From positions 446,834,001-446,898,000 of the forward strand of contig NC_091469.1 of NCBI RefSeq assembly GCF_036971445.1: 64,000 bases of DNA, written 5' to 3'. A model generated the notes under the pieces. The model searched no databases and was not told where the DNA came from. It was given only the letters and a program-made list of their open reading frames with translations. This document shows, in pieces, positions 1,285 to 53,130 of this stretch (position 1 is its first letter; every line of letters starts with the position of its first letter). The position numbers were made by a program, and so were the translations under genes. The stretch is from Narcine bancroftii (taxonomy: Eukaryota).

Positions 1285-1410
1285 CCATACCTTGATGAAG
1301 GGCTCATGCTCGAAACGTCAGTTATCTATTTTTATCTTTGCTGTATGAAGGACCTGCTGAGCCTCTCCAGTATTGTGTTTTTACTCCAACCACGATGTCT
1401 GCAGACTTGC
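1285..1410 (+). mobile_element. Penelope pLTR fragment with a hammerhead-like motif
   Basis: CCTTGATGAAGGGCTCATGCTCGAAACGTC followed by the same downstream CTGCTGAG..TCTCCAG tail. Confidence 0.7.
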
Positions 1411-18586: not shown

Positions 18587-18659
18587 CTGTACAAAAATAT
18601 AAAGGTTCAGTGAGACATTAAGAACTAATAATCAACATCCATCTCCAAATCATTATCTG

Positions 18660-19315
18660 CTCTGTCACTCTAGTTCCCATCCCCCTTCCAATCTAGTTTA
18701 AACCCCCTGGAGCAGCATTGACAAATCTACCACAAGGATGTTAGTCCCCCTCCAGTTCAGGTGCAAACTATCCCATCGGAACAGGTCCCACATTCCCTGG
18801 AACAGAGCCCAATTGTCCAGAAACATGAAGCCCTCCCTCCTGCACCATCTCTTTAGCTGAATTAACTTCTTATTTCTAGCCTCAGTAGCACGTGGCATGG
18901 GTAGCATGGGAGATCACAACCCTGGAGGTCCTGTCCTTCAATTTTGCACCTAACTCCCTAAGCTCTCTTTACAGGATCTCCTCACTCCTTCTACCCACAT
19001 CATTGCTCCCTACTTGACCCACGACATCTGGCTGTTCACCCTCCCTCCTGAGAATACCAAGAACTTGATCCGAGATCTCATGGACCCTGGTAACAATAAG
19101 ATAACAGACCATCTGGGATTCTCAATCTCTCCCACAGAACCTCTTCTCTGTCCCCCTAACTATTGAATTCCCCCATCACTACTGCGCTCCTCTTCTCTCT
19201 CCTTCCTTTCTGAGCTGGGGATCCAGGCTCAGTGTCAAGAGACTTGACCACTACAACTTGTCCCTGGTAGGTCATCCCCACCAACAGTATTCAAAATGGC
19301 ATACTTATTGTTGAT
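18660..19315 (-). mobile_element. CR1 ORF1 (SGNH esterase-like) fragment
   Basis: WCRREGFMFLDNWALFQG..DLFRWDSLHLNWRG. Confidence 0.75.
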
Positions 19316-19539: not shown

Positions 19540-19751
19540 CTATTATTGGCAGTGAGATCACACTGAAATCCTGAAGGCTGATGAGAAAACCGCACCAATG
19601 GGCACCGAGCATTGAGTATTTTTTGCATTCCTGTACATCCTGGGACAAATTGATCAATGCACTCTCCTATCACTGAAAGGATGCTTTGTGTGGCCACCCG
19701 TTCTGATGCCACCCTTTTTGTTTGGTACTCCATGGAGAAGGTACCTTCTGG
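19540..19751 (-). CDS. MTPAP: MTPAP coding exon 5
   Basis: gtttag|[10 protein letters not shown]...[28 protein letters not shown]|gtgagc; 212 nt; includes the third catalytic Asp. Confidence 0.96.
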
Positions 19752-19939
19752 CTAAACAAGAAGAAAACTAGTTGGCAAATGGCAATGCTTTGGTCAGGCT
19801 TGAAACTTCTAACAATGTGCATGAACTTTTGATTCCTTTGATCACACACACCAGATCTCATTCTATTGTAAGTGCAGCCCATACTTACTATAAAGAGCCA
19901 CAAAGGCAGGAATTGACTTTCCTACCTGAAAACAAATTC

Positions 19940-20476
19940 TGAAAAAAACACACAAAATGGTGGAGAAAGTCAGCCTTTATGTAGCAACGGTAAAGATAGA
20001 TCACCAACGTTTCGGGCTTGAGCCCTTCATCAAGGTGTGGGGGAACATGAGAGATGTCCGAACAAAAGGGGGGGGGGTAGATGGTGAGGGTCGGAGATGA
20101 TAGGTCAGGGGGAGAGGGCGGGGGGGGGGGAAGACTGCAGGAAGTAGGGGAGGTATCTAGGCTAGGTGGAGTGAGAAAGGAAGTAGGAACTGGAATGACT
20201 GGTTAAAAGGGGAGATGGGGGAAAAGGCAAGGTAATTCATGGAATACTGGAGTTGGGAGTGTCCAGAGAAAAATGACGTGTTATTCCTCCAATCTGCAGC
20301 TGGACAGTGGTGGGGTAGTGTGAAAGGCCATGGACAGACATAAGCCTGAGAGTACGACTCAGAATTGAAATGGGTTGGCTATGGGGAGGTCACTTTTGTG
20401 GCGGACGGAGAGGAAGTTCTGTGCAAAGCAATCTCCTAATCTACGACCAGTCTCTCCGATGTATAGAAGGCCACAA
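19940..20476 (-). mobile_element. Penelope-like element 3' end (GIY-YIG remnant plus pLTR)
   Basis: Minus-strand translation of 20401-20475 is CGLLYIGETGRRLGDCFAQ, followed by a pyrimidine-rich tract and a hammerhead motif. Confidence 0.85.
20002..20037 (-). ncRNA. Minimal type-I hammerhead ribozyme-like motif of the Penelope pLTR
   Basis: CACC-UUGAUGA-A-GGGC(UCAA)GCCC-GAA-ACGUU-GGUG: stem I CACC/GGUG, stem II GGGC/GCCC, palindromic AACGUU in place of stem III; core has U instead of C at position 3. Confidence 0.7.
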
Positions 20477-21289
20477 ATTCTGATTCATTCTCAGTAGCTT
20501 CAAGTAATATAACAACTTAACAAGGGGATAAAACATTGTGCATTGTTATATAATATTTCTACCTTTACAATAATGTTAAGCATTTCAATAATTGGAAGCA
20601 ATTTCAAATTGAATTATTTATACATGCTAATTTTGCCACAGAGATATTCATGAATATCGATCAACCAAGAGAGCTTCTTTAGCAAAGTAATGGAATTCCA
20701 CAATATCATATTTTATTTTCCTTTATGTGACCAATTTCTTTCAATGGAGCAATGCTCTGCAATATTTCAAGCAGATGTCCAGTAGGCTAAATAACTAAAA
20801 TTTCACACAATGGATGATGTAACTGTACACTCATTCTTGGCATCTACCTCTTCAAAAATCATAAACAGATAGATCTAAAGGAAAGCCCAAGGTAATGGGT
20901 TTTCAAATACATTTATGATTTACAGAATCTATTTAGGGAGTTCTCAATATAACCATATAACAATTACAGTATGGAAACAAGCCATTACAGCCCCTCTAGT
21001 CCACCCCGATTTAAGTGAACTCCACTAGTCCCACCTAGCTGCTCCCTCTCCATAACCCACCAGTCCCCTCACATCCATGTACTCATCCAACCCTCTCTTA
21101 AGTGACAAAATTGACCCTGCAGCAACCACCTCTTCTGGAAGGTCATTCCACTCAGCCACCACTCTGAGTGAAGAAGCTTCCTCTTATGTTACTTCTAAAG
21201 TTCTGCCCCCTAACCCATAACATGAACCCTCATTCCAATCTCACCTACCCTCAAGGGAAAAAGCCTGATCAAGTTATCTTTACAAATAT

Positions 21290-21840
21290 TTTTATAAAGC
21301 TTCATCTCTGATATTGATAGGGCTTTTTTGCGTGATGAATGCTTGCTGGCAGGATGAGCCTTGCAACTGTTTTTTGCCATTCTTGTCTCTGACAAAATCA
21401 AAGACCATCTCTGTAGCCTTCACTGCAGGTTGAGTACTTGTCAACTTCTGTCTGTATACAGGAAAGAGGAGCAAAAACAGGTGGTCCATCTTTCCAAAGT
21501 GTGGGCATGGAATGGAACAACAGGCATCCTAGATAAGTGTAGCAGTGGTTGAGAGTGTTCAATCCCTTGGAGTTGCAGGAGACACGCTGGTGGTAATTTG
21601 AAAGTATCTCCATTAGACTGGCCTGATTGAAGTCCCCACCAATAACTGAGAAGGCATCAGAATACGCTGCATGTTTGTTGATCACGGCGTGCAAATCCTC
21701 CAGTGCCAGCTGAACGTCTGCATGTGTAGGGATGTAGACTGCAATCAGTACAACGGAGATACATTCCCTCAGGAGATAGGAGTGGCACTTGAGTACCAGA
21801 TGTTCCAGATGAGGGAGCAGCCTGGGACAGATTGCCATGT
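21290..21840 (-). mobile_element. Rex1-like LINE endonuclease fragment
   Basis: LEHLVLKC..YL.RE...V.IAVYIP...GGDFNQASL. Confidence 0.75.
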
Positions 21841-22278
21841 CTGAGCATCACAAAGATTTAATCATAAAGATTACACTGCTGCTTTTTCCTTTATCTGAGG
21901 CCCATGCAAAAAACCTTTGGCTGAAAGATCGAGTCCAGGGAGTTGGTGGTGAGCCATCTCTCTGTGAAGCAGAGTATGGAACAAATCCCCATGTCTCTCT
22001 GGTACAGAAATTTTATTTCAATTTATTCTCCAGAGATTGCATATTGGCTAAAAAATATACTAGGAAGGGGTGAATCCCAAAATTTGAATGAACTTTGAAG
22101 TTGTTTGTTGATTACTGGGTATAAATTCTTCAGTGACAGCTTAACGTCTGTGCGTGGAGCGACGTACATTCCCTCAGGAAGTAGAAGGATTGCCACTTGA
22201 TGTGGTCTGTGTAGACTTTTACAAGGTTGCAAAAGAAAATAGTTTGGTGATAGAAGCAAAGGATGATGGTCAAGGGCT

Positions 22279-22336
22279 GCCTTTTGTGACAGGAAGTCTA
22301 TGACCTCGCCTTTTGTGACAGGAAGTCTATGACCTC
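22279..22336. repeat. Perfect 29-bp tandem duplication
   Basis: GCCTTTTGTGACAGGAAGTCTATGACCTC x2. Confidence 0.95.
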
Positions 22337-23215
22337 TGGTGTACTGTCTGTAAGCAGTACACCAAGCAGAAATTAATGCTTGGACCTATGATGTGCGTTT
22401 CAAAAATCAACCATTTGAATGTGAATGTAAGAAAGATGATCAGTATGTTATCATATGTTGTGAAAATTGTTGTTGTTGATAATAGAGGGTTAGTTTACAA
22501 CTGTAAAACATATTTCTCATGATATAATAGGATGCCATTCAAACTATATAGGCGTTGCCATTGCTCAGAGCTATTCTTTTATTTATCTCCCCCCAACTTG
22601 CAGAAGCCTGCTCTCTCTTTCCTATTCCAATCAATTACCTCCTAACACTAGATAAATTTATAGTAGCCAATTAACTTGCCCACAGGATTGAACACAGGTC
22701 TTGGGTACTGGGTGGCAGTGACTCAGTAATTCTGCCTCTATGCTAACCAAAAAGTATGCAGTTCTGGTTGCCAGAGGAGATTCTCAATTAAGGGTCACAA
22801 CCTGAAACAATGACTGACCATTTCTGCCCATGGATACTGCCTGACCTACAGATCCCCCAACAGCTCATTGTTTGCTCTCCATAGTGTTGCCTAGGATAGT
22901 CAGCAATCAAGAATGAAATGCAGAGGGTAGATAGTGACAATGTTTTCCCCTTGGCATGGTTGTTTATGCAGAGTGCATTACTTTCAGATGGGGTAGAAGA
23001 GTTACAAGGGATATGAGGAAGAATTTTTTCATTTAGATGATGGTTGAATTCTGTAAAGCATTTTTGTCTGAGGTGGTGGTGGTGAAAGCAGATATTCCCA
23101 CAGCACTTGTGTAGTTGGATGAACGCTTGAAGCACTCTGTTCTGGAAAATGAGGTATTTGATGGCCAACAATGACTGAAGGACCCATTTCTATCATGTAC
23201 AACTGTAGTATTCTT

Positions 23216-26200
23216 TTTTTATATTTTATTTTTGGTTTTCAAATATACATATTTTACATAAATAAAATAGTCTGCTTACAGCTTACACATAGAATATGTT
23301 TTTCTTAAAAATACAAATTTTTTCATAAATATCTGTATATTAATATCATAAATGTTATTTAAATATATTATCTTAACCAAACTTAAGTCAAATAAAACAA
23401 AATTTTCAAACAATAAACACTCTATTTCCACCCCCCCATACCCTTTAACACAAAAAATAGACGAATATTGGGTCCTTCCATCCACTGTTGGAGCTTACAA
23501 TCTACATTCTATTAAAAAAGATCTAAAATCGAAGGAAGACCATGAATTTACAGCAGCATTATTGTACTTGTGCAACAACATAATTCAAGTATGGTTGCCA
23601 GATCTTGAGGAATGTATTATATTAGTTTCTGATATTATATGTGATCTTTTCCATAGGTCCTAAACTGTCCATTTCTGATATCCATTGTGCCAGAGCAATC
23701 AGTGCATCTGACTTCCATGTAACTGCTACACATTTCTTGGCTACCACCAATGCAATCTTAATTAAAAAGATATTTGAAACTCTCTGAGGATATTGTTAAT
23801 CTCTATAAAATTTCCCAGTAAATATAGTTTGGGGTTACCTGGAAAGTTAACTCTGGTAATCCTTTCGAAGACTTCTGGTATTTCTTGCCAGAAAGAATGA
23901 ACTTTTGTGCATAACCATACAGAATTGAGAAATGTTCCTTCTTCTATTTCACGTCAAAAGCATCGATCTGATATGTCTGGGTTTGATTTGTGTAGTCTTT
24001 GTGGGGTAAAATATAATTGATGCAAAAAAGCCATGCTGCGCATTAATAATCGAGGTTACCCTTTCTTTGTTTTACTGTATTTGCTGCCAGATCTGCTTCC
24101 CAGCTTTCTTTTGATCTATGTAATCCAGGCTTTTTCACTTTCATTTGTAGGGCATAATATATTCAGGTAATAAATTTGGGTACATTACCCATCCATAATG
24201 TTTATTCCAATTCACTTACTTCCAGAGGAGTCGTCATTTCCCCAAATTTCTCTTAGAAAAACCCTTAATTGCAGATAACAAAGGAAAATACCTTTTGGAA
24301 TTCCATAGATTTGCTTCATTTGTTCAAATGACATTGAAATACTGTCTTTGTAGCAGTCCGCGATATGAGCGATCCCCTTTTGTAGCCATATATTTAGAAT
24401 CCTATTTCCCATTATCATAGGTAGAATCGGGTTATTACATAATGATGATCGTAACAAAATTCTAGTTTTCCTTCCTATATTGTTGTTAATATCCTGCCAA
24501 TTTTTTTTTTTAAACATATCAATATAGGATTTGAAGTCTTTTTCCTAATTAATTTTAAATTTCATTATAAAAAAAAATTTAATCACTGTTTCATCCATTC
24601 CTTGTAATCCCACATGCACCCATTTTGGTAGGTTTGTATTGAAAAAAGATGCCAAAAATCTTAATTGTGCAGCCAAATAATTTTTTTTAAATCTGGGAGT
24701 CGCAGTCTCCCTAGTTTATGATCCCATGTCAATTTTTCTAATGCTATTCTTGGTACTTTATTATTCCATCGGAATTGTCTTACTAAATTATTTGTCCAAA
24801 AAAACTTTTTTGGTAAATGTATTGATATCGACTGGAACAAATATTGAATTTTTGGCCTTATCTTCATTTTGACATAATTAACTCTACCTATTAGGGGCAG
24901 GTCCTTCCATTTTTGTTTCATTTTCACCAGCAGGGGAGAGTAGTTCAATTTGTACAAATTATTCAAATTGTTATCAAGCATAATTTCCAGATATTTGATC
25001 CCTTCATTTTTCCATTTGAGTATACTGCTTGCATATAATATGTATTATGTTAAACAATCTTGCCAGATTATTTGACGCATGTCTGCCTTTAACAAATCCC
25101 ACTTGATCTGTATGAATTAACACAGGTAAATACTATACTAACCTGTTCACCAGTGCTTTTTTATAATCTGCGTTTAACAGAGATGTTGGTCAATAGGAAG
25201 AAGTTTTAAGTGGATCTCTATTCTTTTTTTGGTAACATAGTAATTATTGCCATTGAGAAATATCTGTGTTATTACTACTTGTTCCATTATGTCCATGAAT
25301 AATGGCATTAACAAATCTTTAAATTTTTTGTAAAACTTGAGTGGAAATCCATCTTTGTCCAGGGCTTTATTAGCTTGAAGAGTTCCTAATACTTTCTCAA
25401 TTCCCTCCCTGGTAAAATTTAAATCCAATTCTTGTCTATCATTATCATTCAGTTTCGGGAGTTCCACAAAATCTAGAAATTCCTCTATTTCAGTCTCATC
25501 GGTGAGTCGGATTTATATAAATTTTTATATTGTTTGAATGTTTCATTTATTTCTTTCTGTATTGTTTTCCTTCTGTATAACATTTATAGCTCTTGCTGAT
25601 TCTGCAGCCATGCCAATATTTTATGTGCCCTTTCTCCCATTTTGTAATATTTCTGCTTTGTGTTTAATATTGTTTTTCTGCTTTGTATGTTTGTAAAGTG
25701 TTATATTGAATTTTCATATTTTCCATTGTTCTGCATTTGTCTTGTTCACCCGTTCTTTGATATTCTTTTTCTAATTCTCCTATTTCTTCCTCCAATTTAT
25801 TCACTTCAGCATTAAACTCTCTTTTAATCTTTTTTGTGTTGAAATGATTTGTCCTGATAGGTATGCCTTTAAAGTATCCCACATCAAAAAGCTATTGTCA
25901 GTTGATCCTAAATTTGTTTCACCAAAAATTTCAATCTGCTGTCTTATAAATTGTTTAAAATCCTCCCTTTTTAACAACAGTGTATTCAATCGCCACCGAT
26001 ACATAGTTTATTGTTTCTCTGGTATTTGTATTTTTAAGGTTAGTGGTGAATGATCCGAGTGTAATCTGGGTAGGGATTCAGTTTTTTCTACTCTATCCTT
26101 CAGACTCGATGATAGCAAAAAAAAGTCTGTTCTTGTATGTGAATCATACCCAGAGGGTGGTGAATCTGTGGAATTCATTGCCACAGAGGGAAGTAGAGGC

Positions 26201-28794
26201 AGGTTCATTAAATATATTTAAGAGGGAATTAGATATATTTCTTCAGTATAAGGGTATTAAAGGTTACGGAGAGAAGCCGGGGACGGGGTACTGAACTTTA
26301 AGATCAGCCATGATCTCGTTGAAGGGTCGAATGACCTACTCCTGCTCCTATCTTCTATGCATTTTTGAATAAAGCGAGTAGTCTCTTTCCGTGGGATTGG
26401 ATTGCTTCTATACGTCCATCAAATTTAAATCTTTCATGTATAAAAGAGTTAACTTAGCTCTTGTTATTGTTCTTGCTAACTCATCAAGTATTGGGTCTAG
26501 ACAAAAATTAAAGTCCCCTCCAATCAGTATATTTTGCCTTCCCTCTGCTATTTTTAAAAGCACATCCTTCATAAAAGCCTCATTGTCATAATTTGGAATG
26601 TAAATATTCATCAACATCCATGATAGATTTTGCTGTTCATAATTATATATCTGCCCACTTGAGCTTTTGAAATATTTTCTATAACAATTGAAACATTTTA
26701 TTGATTAAAATTGCTACTCTCCCTGCTTTTGAATTAAATAATGAAGAAAAGGCCTGTCCCACCCATAATTGTTTTAGTTTTATCATGTTCTACTTTCATG
26801 AGATGTCTTCTTCTTCTTTGGCTTGGCTTCGCGGACGAAGATTTATGGAGGGGTAATGTCCATGTCAGCTGCAGGCTCATTTGTGGCTGACAAGTCCGAT
26901 GCGGGACAGGCAGACACGGTTGCAGTGGTTGCAAGGGAAAATTGGTTGGTTGGGGTTGGGTGTTGGGTTTTTCCTCCTTTGTCTTTTGTCAGTGAGGTGG
27001 GCTCTGCGGTCTTCTTCAAAGGAGGCTGCTGCCCGCCGAACTGTGAGGCGCCAAGATGCACGGTTTGAGGCGATATCAGCCCACTGGCGGTGGTCAATGT
27101 GGCAGACACCAAGAGATTTCTTTAGGCAGTCCTTATACCTCTTCTTTGGTGCACCTCTGTCTCGGTGGCCAGTGGAGAGCTCGCCATATAACACGATCTT
27201 GGGAAGGCGATGGTCCTCCATTCTGGAGTCGTGACCTACCCAGCGCAGTTTGATCTTCAGAAATACCACATCAGCTTTCAGCTTTTTTAAATAGGTAAGT
27301 ATTCTTTTCCTCTTGACCGTCACATTCAAACCATTAACATTAAAACTTATAAATTTCAATGTCTTATCCATAGCAGCATTTTGTAAATTCTGTGCAAATA
27401 AATAAATATGTAAACAATTTCATGATCTGCACCCTAAATTAAAAACTGTGCAACCTCCGCTCCAATGGTGACGTAGACAGTATGTCCCTGAGACCCATTA
27501 AAAAAAGCCTGATGAAACCTCCAGGGGTAAAACTAAATCCCCTGCTAACACTATTACCCCCCCACACCTTAAGCAAGAGTTTGAACCGTGCTGTACCTTC
27601 AATACCTTCTTTCCACTTTCCGAGTTCCCCGAGAGCTGTAGATAGGATGAAACTTTGACATTTCTTAATATAATTAAGGCAACCTTCACAAAAAAAAACT
27701 TTTCTAGGTCCATAAAATCTCTTATTTACATTAGTTTTTCCACAGTCAACTTTTCTTGTGTCTGCTTTCCTTTCTCTTTATCTTCTTCATAATTGTCGAA
27801 TGAAGTCTTCCACCTCTTCTTTTGTTTTAAAGAATCTTCTATTGCCTTCTGAGATTTCCACTCTCAAAACTGCTGGGTATAATATCGCATACTGGAAGTT
27901 CTTTTCACGAGGTTGCCTCTTGACCACACCGAACTCTCTCCTCTTTTGGATTACTCCATGTCTGAAGTCCTGAAAAAACCTAATCTCTGTATTGTCCCAC
28001 TTTATTGGAGAGCAGGTATTTTGTGAATGTTCCAATGCAACTCTCAAGATTGTTTCTCTGTCTTTGAAGCTTAGTACCCTTACCAGAGCAGGTTGAGGGC
28101 TAGTTTCACCCATTCTCCTAGGTCCAAGCATTCAGTGAGCACGTTCAATGTGGACACGATCACCAAGTTCATCAGTGTGAAGGACTTGAGAACTCCAAGA
28201 CTCGAAAAATTTCACAGTATCTCTGCCTTCTACAACTTCTCTCAGGCCAACTATTCTAACATTGTTTCTCCAACTGAAGTTTTCCGTGTGATCAATTTTA
28301 TCTAAAAGAAGTTGCTGGTCTATTGCCCATTGTTCAGCATGTTTTTTTCAGGACTTCAATCTGTTTATCATATCTACTGAGATCTCTCTCAGTGCCACCC
28401 ATTCTTTCAGATATATCATTTATTGCTTCGTCCTTATCATTCACTGAATTGGTGAGCTCCTTCATAGCATTTTCCACACCTGTGAAACATTGTCCCAGTC
28501 CTTCAAATTCTTGCAAAAGCTTTTCCATCTCTCACATTTGTTAAGAAGTAGAGGCAGCTCCCCCCACCCCAGTACTGTCTGTTGAGGTAGCTGATGAAGC
28601 CAGAGCTTCTTTTGTCGTTGGTCTTGGCTTTTTCTGCGTGCGATCTTCCAGTCATCTTCAACACTTCTTATTCAATGTTGTATACCCACTTTTTCAAGCA
28701 AAAATTCTATTAGAAAACACTTTTTGGTTGTCTTTTAGCACTTTTTCCTGAGAGCTCAGAAAAACACGTCCACTCAGCATGGCCATGCCCTCCC
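23216..28794 (-). mobile_element. Full-length degenerate L1-clade LINE (ORF1 + ORF2) in MTPAP intron 4
   Basis: ORF1 remnants: coiled coil, ALVRVLSFKDRETILR, IRFFQD, AILYPAVL. ORF2 APE: FNVNGLN, GGDFN, SDHSP, followed by RT fragments. Poly(A) end. TSD CAACT(G/C)TAGTATTCTT at 23200-23215 and 28795-28810. Confidence 0.9.
26806..27260 (-). mobile_element. RTE LINE 3' fragment nested in L1 ORF2
   Basis: RWVGH..RMEDHRLPKIVLYGEL...FPCNHCNRVCLSRIGLVSH; (GAA)n tail. Confidence 0.9.
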
Positions 28795-29571
28795 CAACTC
28801 TAGTATTCTTGTAAACAGCTAGCCACCAATTCTGATATATTTATCTTCAGTAATGCTTTGTTCAGAATATATTAAGAATGGGAAATTGAATTATAATTTT
28901 ATCACAAACCATTTCCAAAGAATAATTCATTTTTTGCTACAAAAATTAATCTGTATAACCTAAGCACAGACACAGTGTGACAAGGGGAATTCCTAAAAAC
29001 AAAGCACGTTCTTATGAACCATCAGGGACAACTTGTTGTCTGATCATTGGTGACCTAACTTTTTGCGAACTGCTGTGTTTCGTTTCACCACCTCTGGACT
29101 GATTAGTGAACAATGGCTGATTTCAATAGTTGGAAACAAATAAATAAGTCAGTGACCGAATTTTCTTGGAAAATCTTTGAATTATTTGAAGGCAAAATGA
29201 ACAGATTAGAAACCTCACTCATAACATTACCCACCAGTTTGTCTGAAATAATGACCACTTACAAAATTATAAAAAAGATATCTTCCATCATTAAAATGCA
29301 TCTTCTTTGTCATCTTGCAGAACTAATATAGCAAGTTAATTTCCTACTTTTGAAGAATCTCACTTATTTCACTCTCCTAAGAATATAATTATTCCTCAAG
29401 TTTAACATTCAAGATTGCTTAATAAGTTGTTTACAATCTCACCACACAAAAAGCTTCTACACTAGAGGACACATGATCCTTTTTTTACCATTACTCTACC
29501 AAACAATTGGTCCTGATCCTTAAAGGCTGCTTAAAAATTACTCAAATAAATCAGCCTACAAATTTCACTCG

Positions 29572-32500
29572 GTTACGTTGAAGCTGCCAACATTCTGGGC
29601 ATCGCAGCCACACGTGTGGTTCGAATAAGCTGAGGCCCAGTTCTACCGACAGACGTTACTACTTTGTGGTGAGCTCGCTTAACCAGGACACAGCAGTAAG
29701 TGTAATCAACTTCCTGCAGCAGCCTCCATAACAAGGCAAATACGATGCCCTCAGAGAGCTATTAACCCACACCTTCAGACTCTCACAGCATGAGCATGCC
29801 ATCGGATTGTTGGATATGGATTGTTTGGAAGGACAGGGCCCATCTGCTCTCATGAGCGAAATGCTCACCCTTGCTGAGGGACACAGGCCTTGCCTGCTCT
29901 TTGTGAGCAGATTTTTCTGGAGCAGCTGCCTAAGAAGAACCTACTCTCGTTAGCCGATGAGGACTTCAGCAACTCCAGGAAAGTTACAGCCTGGCCGGAT
30001 GTTCTCTGGAGAGTAAGAAAGAAAATGATGCCTTGGTGGAGCACATAGCCGGCATCAAGGCCACAGGAATCAGAGAGGTAAGTGGACCCCCCTAACCCAA
30101 CAGTATTGCTATTATCACCAATGATTGGGTGCGGGGCTCAACAATGCTGCCCACCCTGCGCATTTCAGGGAAACACCATGGCCAACCGCCGTTAATGGCT
30201 GCGGCAGTTGCCCAATGTGACAGCCTCCTCCATGTGTGGGAATCTCTATCAGGAAGGCGTTTCCTCATTGACACTGGTGGCCCTCGGCCTATGACACCTG
30301 GAACAACAAGCCAGGACCAGCACTGGGGGCAATGAACGGCAACACTATACGAACTTTTGGCACCCGCGTCATCCCCCTCCACTTCGGCAGCAACCAGTTC
30401 ACGTGGACATTCACGATTGCAGCTGTGGTGCAACCGCTGCTGGGAGCAGACTTCCTGCAAGCCCACTGCCCGCTGGTGGACCTTAAAGGGTGGCATTTGG
30501 TGCACACCAGGTCTTTTCGAACAACACCCCTTGGGAAGCCAAGTTACCTGCTCCCCACGTCAACTCCATTACTCTGTTCGACAACGCATTTAAGCAGATC
30601 CTAGTGGAGTTCCCTTCAATCATGGCTCCAGTTTTCCTCCGCTGAACTGAAGCACGGGGTAAGGAGCCACATTCTCACTAAGGGTCCCCCCCACTCTATC
30701 CCAGGGCATGCCGCCTTCCCCTGAGATGCTCACCCTCACCATGGAGGAGTTTAAAAACAATTAAAGAGCTGAGGATAGTGTGGCATTCTGACAGCCCCTG
30801 GGCCTCCCCCCTGTACATGGTACCGAAGGCAGGAAGAGGGTGGAGGCCATGTGGTGACTATTGCTGCCTCAATGAGGCCACCACACCTGACAGATACCCC
30901 GTGCCCCATATCCAAGATTTTACTACCACCCACATACCACCTTATGCAATCCCTTACTAATCACAGAGCACTTATGGCATAGGGAATATTTAAAGTGGTA
31001 CATGAGTGGAAAGAAAAAGGTTGAAAACCACTGTTCCAGAGGCTAGTGGATACAGTGGGTCAGGATCTCCCATTCATGTTTATCTATTTGGATAATATGC
31101 AAGTGGCCTATCTAAGATGACTGTGTAACTGGCTGTAGGAATTTGAACTATAAACCCTGCTAAGTGCCAGATTGGGTTGGAAACGATCAACTTTCTGGGG
31201 TATTGAATCAACAGGCACAGAGCGAAACCCCACCCAAAAAGATAAAGGCCACTTGGCACTTCGCCAAGCCCCACACACTGAAGGGGTTTGCAAGAATTCA
31301 ATGGTATGATTAACTGTTATCACCGATTCATACCAGCAGTGGCCACATCATGTACCCCCTTTTCGTACTCATGATGGTGAAAGGTAAAGACATTACCTGG
31401 GTTAATCAGGCCTCCGAGGTGTTCCAGAGGGCCAAGGATGCACTGGCCAATGCTACCTTTCTGGTAAACCCAGAGGTGCCAACCACTCTAACAGTAGATG
31501 TCTCCAGCACAGGGGAAGGGGACGTACTGGAGCAATTCATGGAAGGACAATGGCAGCCCTTGGCCTTCTTTAGTAGGCATCTCCAGCCACCCAAACTCCA
31601 ATATAGTGCCTTTGACCAGGAGCTATTGGCACTGTACCTGCTAGTCAGGCACTTCAAGTGTTTTTTAGAAGGTAGACAATTCAGTGTCTGAGTTCACCAC
31701 AGACATCCAACACAACGTGGCTAAGACCAACGTGGTGGCTGATCCACTGTCCCACCCTGCGATCAAGTCCATCCAAGCCCTGTCCCAATGATTAGACTAT
31801 TTTGCCATAGCCAGGGCATCCAAGATCCTGGCATACACAACAGCAGTTTCTGGGCTCAGGCTGGAGAATGTCACCATTGGTCCTAGTAACCAGATGCTCC
31901 TCTGCGACATCTCCACTGGCAAACCATGCCCCATTGTGCCAGCAGCATGGAGACACAGGTTTTCGATGCAATGCACAACCAGGCACACCCAGCCATCAGA
32001 ACTTCTGTCAAAATGGTGGCCAGAAGGGTCACCTGGCACAGCCTCCGTTAACAGGTCAGTGGGTCAAGACTTGAACGATCAGCCAGATGTCCAAAGTGTA
32101 AACACACGTCAAGACTTTCGACCCAGTGCAACATAGGTTCAGTTACGTTCATACTGACATTGTAGGGACACTACCAGACTCCCGTGGGGGCGAGATATCT
32201 CCTCACCAAGACTGACCACTTCACGAGGTGGCCGGAGGTGGTCCCGCTGGTCGACATGATCACCAACATCTGCGCCAGGGCACTGATTTACACCTGGGTA
32301 TCGAGACTGGGAGTCGCAGAGCACATGACCTTCAGTAGAGGCACACAGTTCACTCCAGGATTCTGGGCGGCTCTGGCCAATCAGCTCCACCACTGCACGG
32401 CTTACCACCCTCAGATCAACAGGTTGGTGGAGCGGTTCCACAGGAACCTAAAGGTAGCCTTCATGGCTCAGCTCAAGGAGCCAAACTAGGTAAACGAACT

Positions 32501-33233
32501 ACCTTGAGTCCTCTTGGGGATCTGCGCCGAAAGACGACTTCAATGCCTCAGCAGCTGAGATGGTGTACAGCACACTGTTGGTGATACTAGGAAGAGCTCT
32601 TGGCTGCTGCCAAGGACTCAGAAGACCTGACAGCCTCATTGACTAAGATGAGGGAAAGAATAGGCACTCTAGCACCTCCACAGTCTACGCCGCATGGCCA
32701 GCCCAAAGTCTATGTCCCCAAAGACCTGTGAGTACAGTTTCATTCAGAGTGGGCCACACTGAACACCTCTGCAATGGCCATATGAGGGGGCATATAAAGT
32801 AATCGGACAAAACAGGTCGACATGCTGGATATCAGCGGTAAAGAAGAGACCTCACTATTGACCTCCTCAAACCAGCACATCTGCAACGCAGAGGTAGGCC
32901 ACCAAAAGCGGTGAACAGCACTCCAATCGCTGGTTCTGGAGGAGGGGGCTGTGTAGCAGCCTGCTAACCGGGATGCAACCTGGCACACACAATGGCCGAC
33001 GAACGCGGCAACCACGAAGACCCCACGAGGGCCAATGACTTTCGTCCAAGGTGATCACCTACATGGCGGGAAACAATGAGCAATCTGAGACCGGCACTGC
33101 CGTGACATCACTCCTGTCGTCAGCAGTGGGAAGAGAATATAAGCAGAGCTACCAGTGCAAAAAAATCAGTCTTCTGACTTCAACTTCTTGGGTGCATGTC
33201 ATTCTTTCCACACTCTGCAGTAGGGCACATGCT
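29572..33233 (+). mobile_element. Degenerate Ty3/Gypsy LTR retrotransposon lacking its 5' LTR
   Basis: gag KLPTFW; protease FLIDTG; RT SPWASP/RPCGDY; RNase H QPLAFFSR/YSAFDQELLA; integrase TRWPE/YHPQ..LVERFHR; PPT GGAGGGGG then an LTR from about 32950. Confidence 0.88.
30920..31034. mobile_element. hAT MITE (left end lost) nested in Gypsy RT
   Basis: Matches the 4096-4227 body; right TIR GGTTGAAAACCACTG. Confidence 0.85.
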
Positions 33234-34280
33234 CTTTTCGTCATTCATTTTTGGCAGATATTTTAATTGCCCAAATCTTATTCTGTGGACTATACTTCTT
33301 AGGGTTCTACCTCTCTATCCATTGTTCAATAAATAAGCCAATAGTCATGGAATTATGGAAATTTATGGCACAGGAGGCTACCTGCCCAATAATCCCATGA
33401 CAGCCAAAAATGGACCAATTTATTTTAATTTCCCAATCTCAGTCCATAGCCATGCAGGTTCAACCTGCCATGTTTGAACTAGTTTTAGAAAGTCTATATA
33501 CATATATCCAATACCCAACCTTCAGCAATATCCATTGGCATCTTATTATTAGTTCAAAATGTTCTTTCATCTAAGGCACGCAGACTATCCTTGACTAACT
33601 AAAATGTTGACTTACGCAGTCATCAGAACTCTTCCGACAACTGACCCACTACTCCTGTTTCCATTCTTTCTCCACAGATGCCCTATGATCTGCTGAGTGC
33701 TTCAAGCATTTTCTGGCAGATACATCACATCCTTAATGTAAATTCCTATTTGATCTCCCTCTTTTATGAAGACTAAGTATTCCTAAAGAACTAAGTCTTC
33801 TGTCTTTGTACTAGTTCATTGGTGTGGTTTGAGGTGGGGGGGGGGGAAGGAAGATGTGATCAGGGATGAGTCCTTTAATATGTTGGCTGCTTTCCCAAGG
33901 CAGCGGGAGGTGAAGTGAATATGGAGTCCATGGAAGGGAGGTTGGTTTGTGTGATAACCTTAGCTGTATTCTCTTGTGGTTTTGGGCAGGGCAGATCCTG
34001 TACCAAGCTGTGATGCTTTCCATCAATTTGTGGAGCTCACACTGGATTCCATGCAATCTAACCTTTTGGACTAGCCTACCATGTGGGATCTTGTCAAGTA
34101 TGTCGCCGAAGTCCCCACCCACACACAAAACCCCATGAATTTTCTTGGGTCACCTCTTCAGTCACTGATATTAGGCTCACCAACCTGTAGCTTTTTGACT
34201 TGTCTTTACAAGATATTTGATTTACATAATTGACAAGAATGAAAATTCAATTTCCTCCGTTGAATTACAGCACTTTGTAC

Positions 34281-34505
34281 CTTTGTGCTATTTCTTCCAC
34301 CGATGCTGTCCAAATCCAGAAACATGTCGAGGTCACAGCCCATCTTGCCAAAATTATTTACAGATGATCCAAATGGTTTAATTGAGCACTCTGGAAAATA
34401 AGCACCTGCAATTTCCTTCAATAGGGAACACACAAGGAAACGAAGACGTGTATTCTCTTCAGTAAGTTGGCTCTCTTTGAGGACTGTGTATAATTGTTCA
34501 TCGAT
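34281..34505 (-). CDS. MTPAP: MTPAP coding exon 4 (nucleotidyltransferase GS...DxD motif)
   Basis: [28 protein letters not shown]...[23 protein letters not shown]; AG/GT flanks; 225 nt. Confidence 0.97.
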
Positions 34506-52779: not shown

Positions 52780-53130
52780 CTATGTGACTGCAATGCAAAA
52801 TGTGCTGGAGAAATTCAACAGGTCATGTAGCATCAATAGGAAGTGAAGTGTAACCACTGTTTTGGGCCTGAGTCCTTCATCAAGGTAGGAACAAAAATCG
52901 GGCAGGCGCATGAGTAAAAATGTGGGGAGTGGAGAGGAGGAGAGAGGAAGGGGCAGGGGGAGGACCACAGGCTAACAGGCAAGAAATATTAGGTAGATAT
53001 AGGTAGGAGGTCAGAAGAAGAAGAAAGCTGAGAAGGGATGGGGAGAGGGTAGCACTCTGATAGGAAGGGAAGGGTGGGGAGATGGAGAATAGGAAAAGAG
53101 AGACATTTGGGGGAGGGGCTTATCAGAAAT
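52780..53130 (-). mobile_element. Penelope pLTR fragment with a decayed hammerhead
   Basis: Minus strand CCTTGATGAAGGACTCAGGCCCAAAACAG plus a polypurine/pyrimidine tract. Confidence 0.65.

Follow-up and report, generated by a model that had tools for sequence, protein, structure and literature searches.

Does a hammerhead-like motif lying in sense orientation in an intron of the mitochondrial poly(A) polymerase gene (MTPAP) of Narcine bancroftii act on its host transcript, or is it the remains of a mobile element? The motif was originally predicted within a 64,000 nt stretch of contig NC_091469.1 (the window), as a member of a variant ribozyme family that could cut host pre-mRNAs or be attenuated. 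We find the motif to be real, but an ordinary relic belonging to a known class. Our preferred explanation, which we hold at a probability of about 80%, is that it is the hammerhead of a Penelope-like terminal repeat, brought into MTPAP intron 4 by a 5'-truncated copy of the element, and likely an inert passenger. The single locus matters little, being one among many intact copies; what is mainly of interest is that, across the Penelope families sampled in this genome, the majority core is U3-G8.

The motif and its predicted fold

The minimal type-I hammerhead motif was confirmed on the minus strand at 20002-20037, with letters and coordinates as first described. In hammerhead numbering it consists of a 4 bp stem I (20037-20034 with 20005-20002), the core U3-U4-G5-A6-U7-G8-A9 (20033-20027, U3 at 20033), an additional A after A9 (20026), stem II of 4 bp with a 4 nt loop (20025-20014), G12-A13-A14 (20013-20011), a 4 nt palindrome standing in for stem III (20010-20007) and U17 in the N17 position (20006). 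From the numbering used in PMC4209133, cleavage is predicted 3' of U17, between 20006 and 20005.

Folding of the isolated 36-mer gave full pairing of both 4 bp stems, in agreement with the perfect pairing claimed earlier. The fold by itself is not beyond shuffles (z -1.84; 17 of 200 shuffles were equally good), and an Rfam scan of the window returned no hammerhead match. The copy number identifies the motif as a repeat and not a chance occurrence, as the genome contains the 25 nt core 950 times in exact form and its reversed control 0 times.

The motif has the helix I of 4-5 bp and the paired helix II of the minimal hammerheads (min-HHR) of Penelope-like elements (PLEs), its 4 bp stem II being at the short end of the published range. 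It also has the extra nucleotide between 9 and 10.1, the G10.1-C11.1 pair, the palindromic 15.1-16.1 replacing helix III, an H at 17, and the expected core at positions 4-9 and 12-14. The predicted self-duplex of the palindrome amounts to only -1.7 kcal/mol. In place of the Watson-Crick C3-G8 pair of a canonical hammerhead (or U3-A8, or G3-C8) there is U3 with G8, and the monomer has neither a stable helix III nor the loop-loop tertiary contact. As C3-G8 is absent we file the motif as a PLE min-HHR and not as a canonical hammerhead.

We rejected an alternative register in which position 3 is C and a U has been inserted, since there are C3 copies sharing this stem I and G5 has to come after U4. 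The minimum free energy homodimer (-30.6 kcal/mol) was likewise rejected as the active form, because its stem II strands pair between copies. An ATG within the core opens a 9-codon frame (20032-20003, minus strand); the ORF of the anole element is reported to begin at stem II (PMC11167929).

Position within MTPAP

MTPAP was located by protein matching as nine blocks on the minus strand between 45435 and 13465, and its exon at 19751-19540 matches, at 100% identity, a Narcine bancroftii protein that bears the label mitochondrial poly(A) polymerase. This exon 5 (212 nt, minus strand) is preceded by an AG acceptor at 19753-19752, and the last base of exon 4 is 34281, followed by a GT donor at 34280, which leaves an intron 4 of 14,529 nt (19752-34280, minus strand). 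Because exon 4 ends at 34281 and exon 5 starts at 19751, the motif lies within intron 4 and in sense, which bears out the original placement; the predicted cut falls 254 nt upstream of the exon 5 acceptor, where about 250 nt had been proposed. Exon 5 was joined to exon 6 in two contig sets that we guess to be RNA; contigs reveal neither RNA ends nor expression levels, and those from other organisms stop short of covering the site. The very high contig depth over the motif was discarded as a signal for this locus, as the depth sums paralogs, and a contig end at 19988 from another organism was discarded as a trace of the cut, as it coincides with the repeat boundary. Most of MTPAP intron 5 is occupied by another high-copy repeat (window 18600-19310), and a tail-only piece of the same element family at about 44445 on the plus strand, antisense in intron 1, carries no motif.

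The window motif scan found only three motifs, one in MTPAP and the outer two outside its coding span, with no second sense motif within the gene. The second copy (1285-1351, plus strand) is outside MTPAP and on its opposite strand, and has a damaged stem II; the third (52853-52886, minus strand), which lies 7.4 kb upstream of the MTPAP start codon, lacks both G12 and the palindrome. The same core variant had been reported at 1291 and 52880, and U3 is indeed present in both (at 1292 and 52883), but both are damaged, with 3 and 5 mismatches in 28 nt, respectively. A non-LTR retrozyme would have at least two tandem hammerhead units; the MTPAP span holds a single motif.

The Penelope-like element carrying the motif

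The motif is carried by a 5'-truncated PLE relic of about 500 nt (19973-20478, minus strand) comprising the endonuclease end, the 3' UTR/pLTR with the hammerhead, and the tail; weaker similarity continues beyond it to about 19930. Outside the motif the relic is 11.9% diverged from the subfamily majority. The GIY-YIG endonuclease remnant upstream of the motif (20266-20478, minus strand) is frameshifted but real as predicted: paralog frames match it at 51% identity across 74 aa and 46% across 71 aa. Pfam gave no match on the window's own remnant, and on a paralog endonuclease frame reached E 0.033 at best, which falls short of the cut-off.

A DNA search gave 5,252 candidates, of which 40 were scored, and the 39 besides the window itself were 76-82% identical. 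The reverse transcriptase (RT) frame of one paralog (L106) matches proteins with RVT_1, some of them also with GIY-YIG, which is a Penelope-like layout. The motif was downstream of RT in 8 of 10 RT loci, and thus has the place in the terminal repeat, 3' of an RT and GIY-YIG ORF, that characterises PLE min-HHRs. The element context and the min-HHR layout together support the proposed Penelope pLTR hammerhead.

Of 30,845 RT candidates, the 150 with the best scores show no open frame above 525 aa, and the 10 RT loci are at most 83% alike. The family hence looks old and dead, as far as the best candidates to a decayed query reveal. The L106 frame has a CX4CXXC linker, in accordance with the CX2-5CXXC before the endonuclease in Neptune; that spacing also fits Nematis (PMC8557442), and the region is missing from the window copy. 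With the linker as the sole character considered, the family appears Neptune-like, or Nematis.

U3-G8 as the state of the family

Genome-wide, exact pattern matches numbered 1,750 for U3 with G8, 145 for C3 and 84 for U3-A8, and there are about 1,900 pattern-intact copies. Along with the presence of U3 in all 29 nearest paralogs, and in 51 of 74 unselected copies as against 14 with C, these counts substantiate the claim that U3 is family-wide and not decay. Descriptor searches that insist on C3 or U3-A8 would overlook roughly nine tenths of these motifs. The ordinary stem change G10.1A has 125 matches genome-wide; as G8A is no commoner (84), A8 is at the mutation background and a compensatory U3-A8 lineage was rejected.

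To this we add the behaviour of the subfamilies. Five clusters were built on tails alone from 99 unselected copies; the clusters are mixed, and their majority tails are 51-82% alike and their upstream flanks 56-71%. U3 is the majority in all five, there are 0 differences at the ten other core positions, and variation between clusters falls on N7, loop II, N17 and stem I, positions that a hammerhead leaves free. C3 reaches its highest share in the most diverged cluster (8 of 23 versus 5 of 33). It should be noted that the unselected copies were found with a profile of the motif itself, which favours conserved cores.

The covariation test proposed for the motif was run on 79 distinct rows, made up of pattern-selected copies and the window copy, in which the pattern fixed three stem II pairs. 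In stem I all four pairs were changed on both sides, with 69% paired overall, and the covariation score of 0.165 is modestly above the 0.125 +/- 0.010 of the shuffles, none of 500 being as high, although the shuffles ignore relatedness. As U3-G8 is kept across subfamilies with diverged flanks, the fold was likely constrained in the source elements. Comparison of the copies suggests that it mattered there after U3 arose, with the tests leaning to conservation through ascertainment and relatedness; the constraint could instead reflect protein binding or a promoter.

Two explanations of the U3-G8 core may be set against each other here. The first is that U3-G8 is a slowed working ribozyme in the source elements, acting as a dimer or with the element protein, and that the change may have lessened damage to host transcripts enough for the family to spread through introns. 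The uniform U3 majority with variation confined to free positions, the stem I covariation above all shuffles, the enrichment of C3 in the most diverged cluster and a U3-G8 family in Saccoglossus (PMC4209133) all speak for it. The motif-profile ascertainment, the mixed clusters, the disregard of relatedness and the alternative of protein binding or a promoter weigh on the other side, as do the copy ends and orientations described below, and we regard this explanation as possible but rather doubtful.

The second is that U3 ended catalysis early, and that the sequence hitch-hiked or was kept for another job of the terminal repeat; this we hold to be slightly more likely than the first, though well short of even odds. 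Such a job could be that of a binding site for the element protein, a promoter or an RNA structure near the RT start. Mutants of the CUGA turn are low in activity, the G-C swap excepted, though no figure for C3U itself was found in the material of PMC9901934. In vitro, hammerhead catalysis is not needed for insertion (PMC11167929), and Naiad PLEs spread with no canonical hammerheads (PMC8557442). The lack of a compensatory A8 lineage fits as well. Against it, subfamily variation falls on hammerhead-free positions and spares the catalytic ones.

Decay and orientation of the copies

G12 was changed in 10 of the 29 paralogs, which equals the CpG rate, and all 36 letters were kept in 2 of 29. Over 28 paralogs (the 29 less one near-duplicate), rare changes at ten non-CpG core sites numbered 4 against an expectation of 12.6 (P 0.005, post hoc), which counts against an inert motif. 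This shortage does not recur among the unselected copies, as 60 of the 74 kept G5, 56 kept G8 and 60 kept the stem G10.1. A tail-anchored comparison of core and stem decay, in which an identity filter kept 101 of 216 matches, gave 53 of 198 for core G and 66 of 298 for stem G (P 0.24) in a LINE-contaminated set.

The 74 copies came from a profile search of an intron sample, 1.4 Mb between same-strand CUB exons of four long genes. The reversed control gave 1, and a single copy of the 74 was intact; extrapolated from 74 per 1.4 Mb, the genome would hold roughly 175,000 decayed copies. Head-to-head inverted pairs, a known insertion pattern of PLEs, were common (C15, C17, C5; L121, L124), and 18 of 74 copies had an opposite-strand copy within 1.5 kb. 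At one locus (L062:1400-1535, C1 near 5.19 Mb) three units of roughly 46 nt stand head to tail, each of them a single U3 hammerhead motif, and form a natural tandem of the U3 variant; the third is intact and the first two lack G12.

In the introns 36 copies were sense and 38 antisense (95% CI of the sense share 0.37-0.61, n=74). Control LINEs in the same introns were likewise unbiased (64:62 and 30:24), so the orientation test may be blunt and a cost to the host could be missed. The labels CSMD-like, CR1-like and RTE-like were assigned by the look of the sequence and are presumptive. Split by core, orientation was 17 sense to 15 antisense for U3 and 7:3 for C3, which is no visible difference and gives no help to a slowed ribozyme that spared its hosts. 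Nor do copy ends mark the cut site: of 106 unselected copies with a tail, only 4 start within 10 nt of it, and it was rejected as the 5' end of copies. Starts instead accumulate upstream of the cut, at 21-40 nt from it (34 of 106), in part because distant subfamilies align across the motif alone.

A bolder version would have a vertebrate Penelope lineage that fixed the wobble U3-G8 core, selected through several subfamilies as a slowed, protein-gated ribozyme, with about 10^5 intronic copies in either orientation and host RNA left uncut. We find this version improbable.

Folding in context and the fate of the host transcript

A rival hairpin is predicted at 19989-20005 (minus strand), with a pair probability of 0.86-0.92 in 231 and 551 nt contexts. 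Since this hairpin, just 3' of the motif, captures one strand of stem I, the 3' one, pairing of stem I is predicted to be disfavoured in context, its probability dropping to 0.01-0.03 in the same contexts of the equilibrium folding model; it could form co-transcriptionally, ahead of the hairpin. The 3' strand of stem I can pair instead with a stretch 11-16 nt downstream. In many paralogs of the window copy's subfamily the hairpin is lengthened by one further pair; it would sit at the 5' end of the cleaved RNA, or serve as an off-switch. At 19999, where 25 of 29 paralogs carry G, the window copy has a change of its own, by which an extended stem I would become shorter.

Within the source elements, stems I and II of the motif would form, and the two terminal repeats would supply two motifs sharing stem III through the 4 nt palindrome. 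The element's own protein is probably needed for cutting, which would take place after U17 and be slow, because U3-G8 replaces the C3-G8 pair. Single min-HHR copies showed no cleavage and dimers low activity (PMC4209133), and the anole PLE hammerhead cut only with the ORF protein and left no RNA-seq reads at the site (PMC11167929). In MTPAP pre-mRNA neither a partner motif nor an intact element protein was found, and hence the intron would be spliced out before any cut. Should a slow cut occur, splicing would probably survive it; according to a second-hand account in PMC2995048, introns that a slow hammerhead cuts are still spliced.

It could be argued that the host has kept the window copy to cut or tune its MTPAP pre-mRNA near exon 5. 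The copy has all 36 letters intact (chance 0.037 from per-site rates, for a copy picked for its intactness), it is in sense and it lies close to the acceptor. The missing partner, the rival hairpin and the private change all argue against this, and with so many pattern-intact copies in the genome, intact sense intronic ones are expected by chance. We consider a host-kept motif very unlikely, and nothing found points to a host role.

We therefore retain the inert passenger. The suggestion that the motif could cut host pre-mRNA found no support, given no partner in the transcript, a disfavoured stem I, no sense depletion and core decay among the copies. The other half of that suggestion, an attenuated ribozyme, is plausible from the mutagenesis in PMC9901934. 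The lone window copy probably acts too slowly for its host RNA to be cut.

Comparison with known systems

Literature searches returned no study of U3-G8 activity, which does not establish its absence from print, and we found no discussion of it in the text of PMC4209133. Further literature on these ribozymes includes PMC6765202, PMC3884650, PMC7151607 and PMC11014351.

Amniote intronic hammerheads (C10orf118, RECK; PMC3088659) are also sense hammerheads in vertebrate introns, but they are canonical, tertiary-stabilised, active and conserved across species, whereas the present motif is minimal and one of very many repeats. Non-LTR retrozymes (bioRxiv 10.64898/2026.07.22.740005) share the type-I hammerhead derived from PLE pLTRs, but are built of tandem units, where we have a single truncated element end. 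The anole Poseidon element PAc (PMC11167929) carries a pLTR hammerhead that has an ATG inside or close to it and is the likely model for protein-assisted cutting; it is C3-G8 with an active ORF, in contrast to our family, which is Neptune-like by linker and appears dead. The U3-A8 core variants of Schistosoma Cercyon PLEs (PMC4209133), with natural cases in Perreault 2011 (PMC3088659), have the same U at position 3, but restore a Watson-Crick 3-8 pair, while here G8 is retained and A8 stays at background (84 versus 1,750).

The closest likeness is to the PLE min-HHRs of Cervera and De la Pena 2014 (PMC4209133). These motifs follow the type-I layout, with 4 bp in stem I, an extra nucleotide after A9, the G10.1-C11.1 pair and a loopless palindromic 15.1-16.1, and they likewise occur as thousands of single dispersed copies from truncated elements. 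The U3-G8 PLE motif is not new in print, as Saccoglossus_kowalevskii(1) in Fig. S3 of that paper, a PLE-associated motif, has U3 and G8 along with the same palindrome and the U17 seen here. We found no cartilaginous fish in the parts of that figure examined; the supplements of bioRxiv 10.64898/2026.07.22.740005 may list some. For the question whether cutting is required of Penelope hammerheads at all, the family is a clean natural test, as a U3-G8 majority and older C3 relatives in one genome form a ready pair for assay. The published PLE min-HHR consensus has C3, while in the families of this genome U3-G8 is the majority state.
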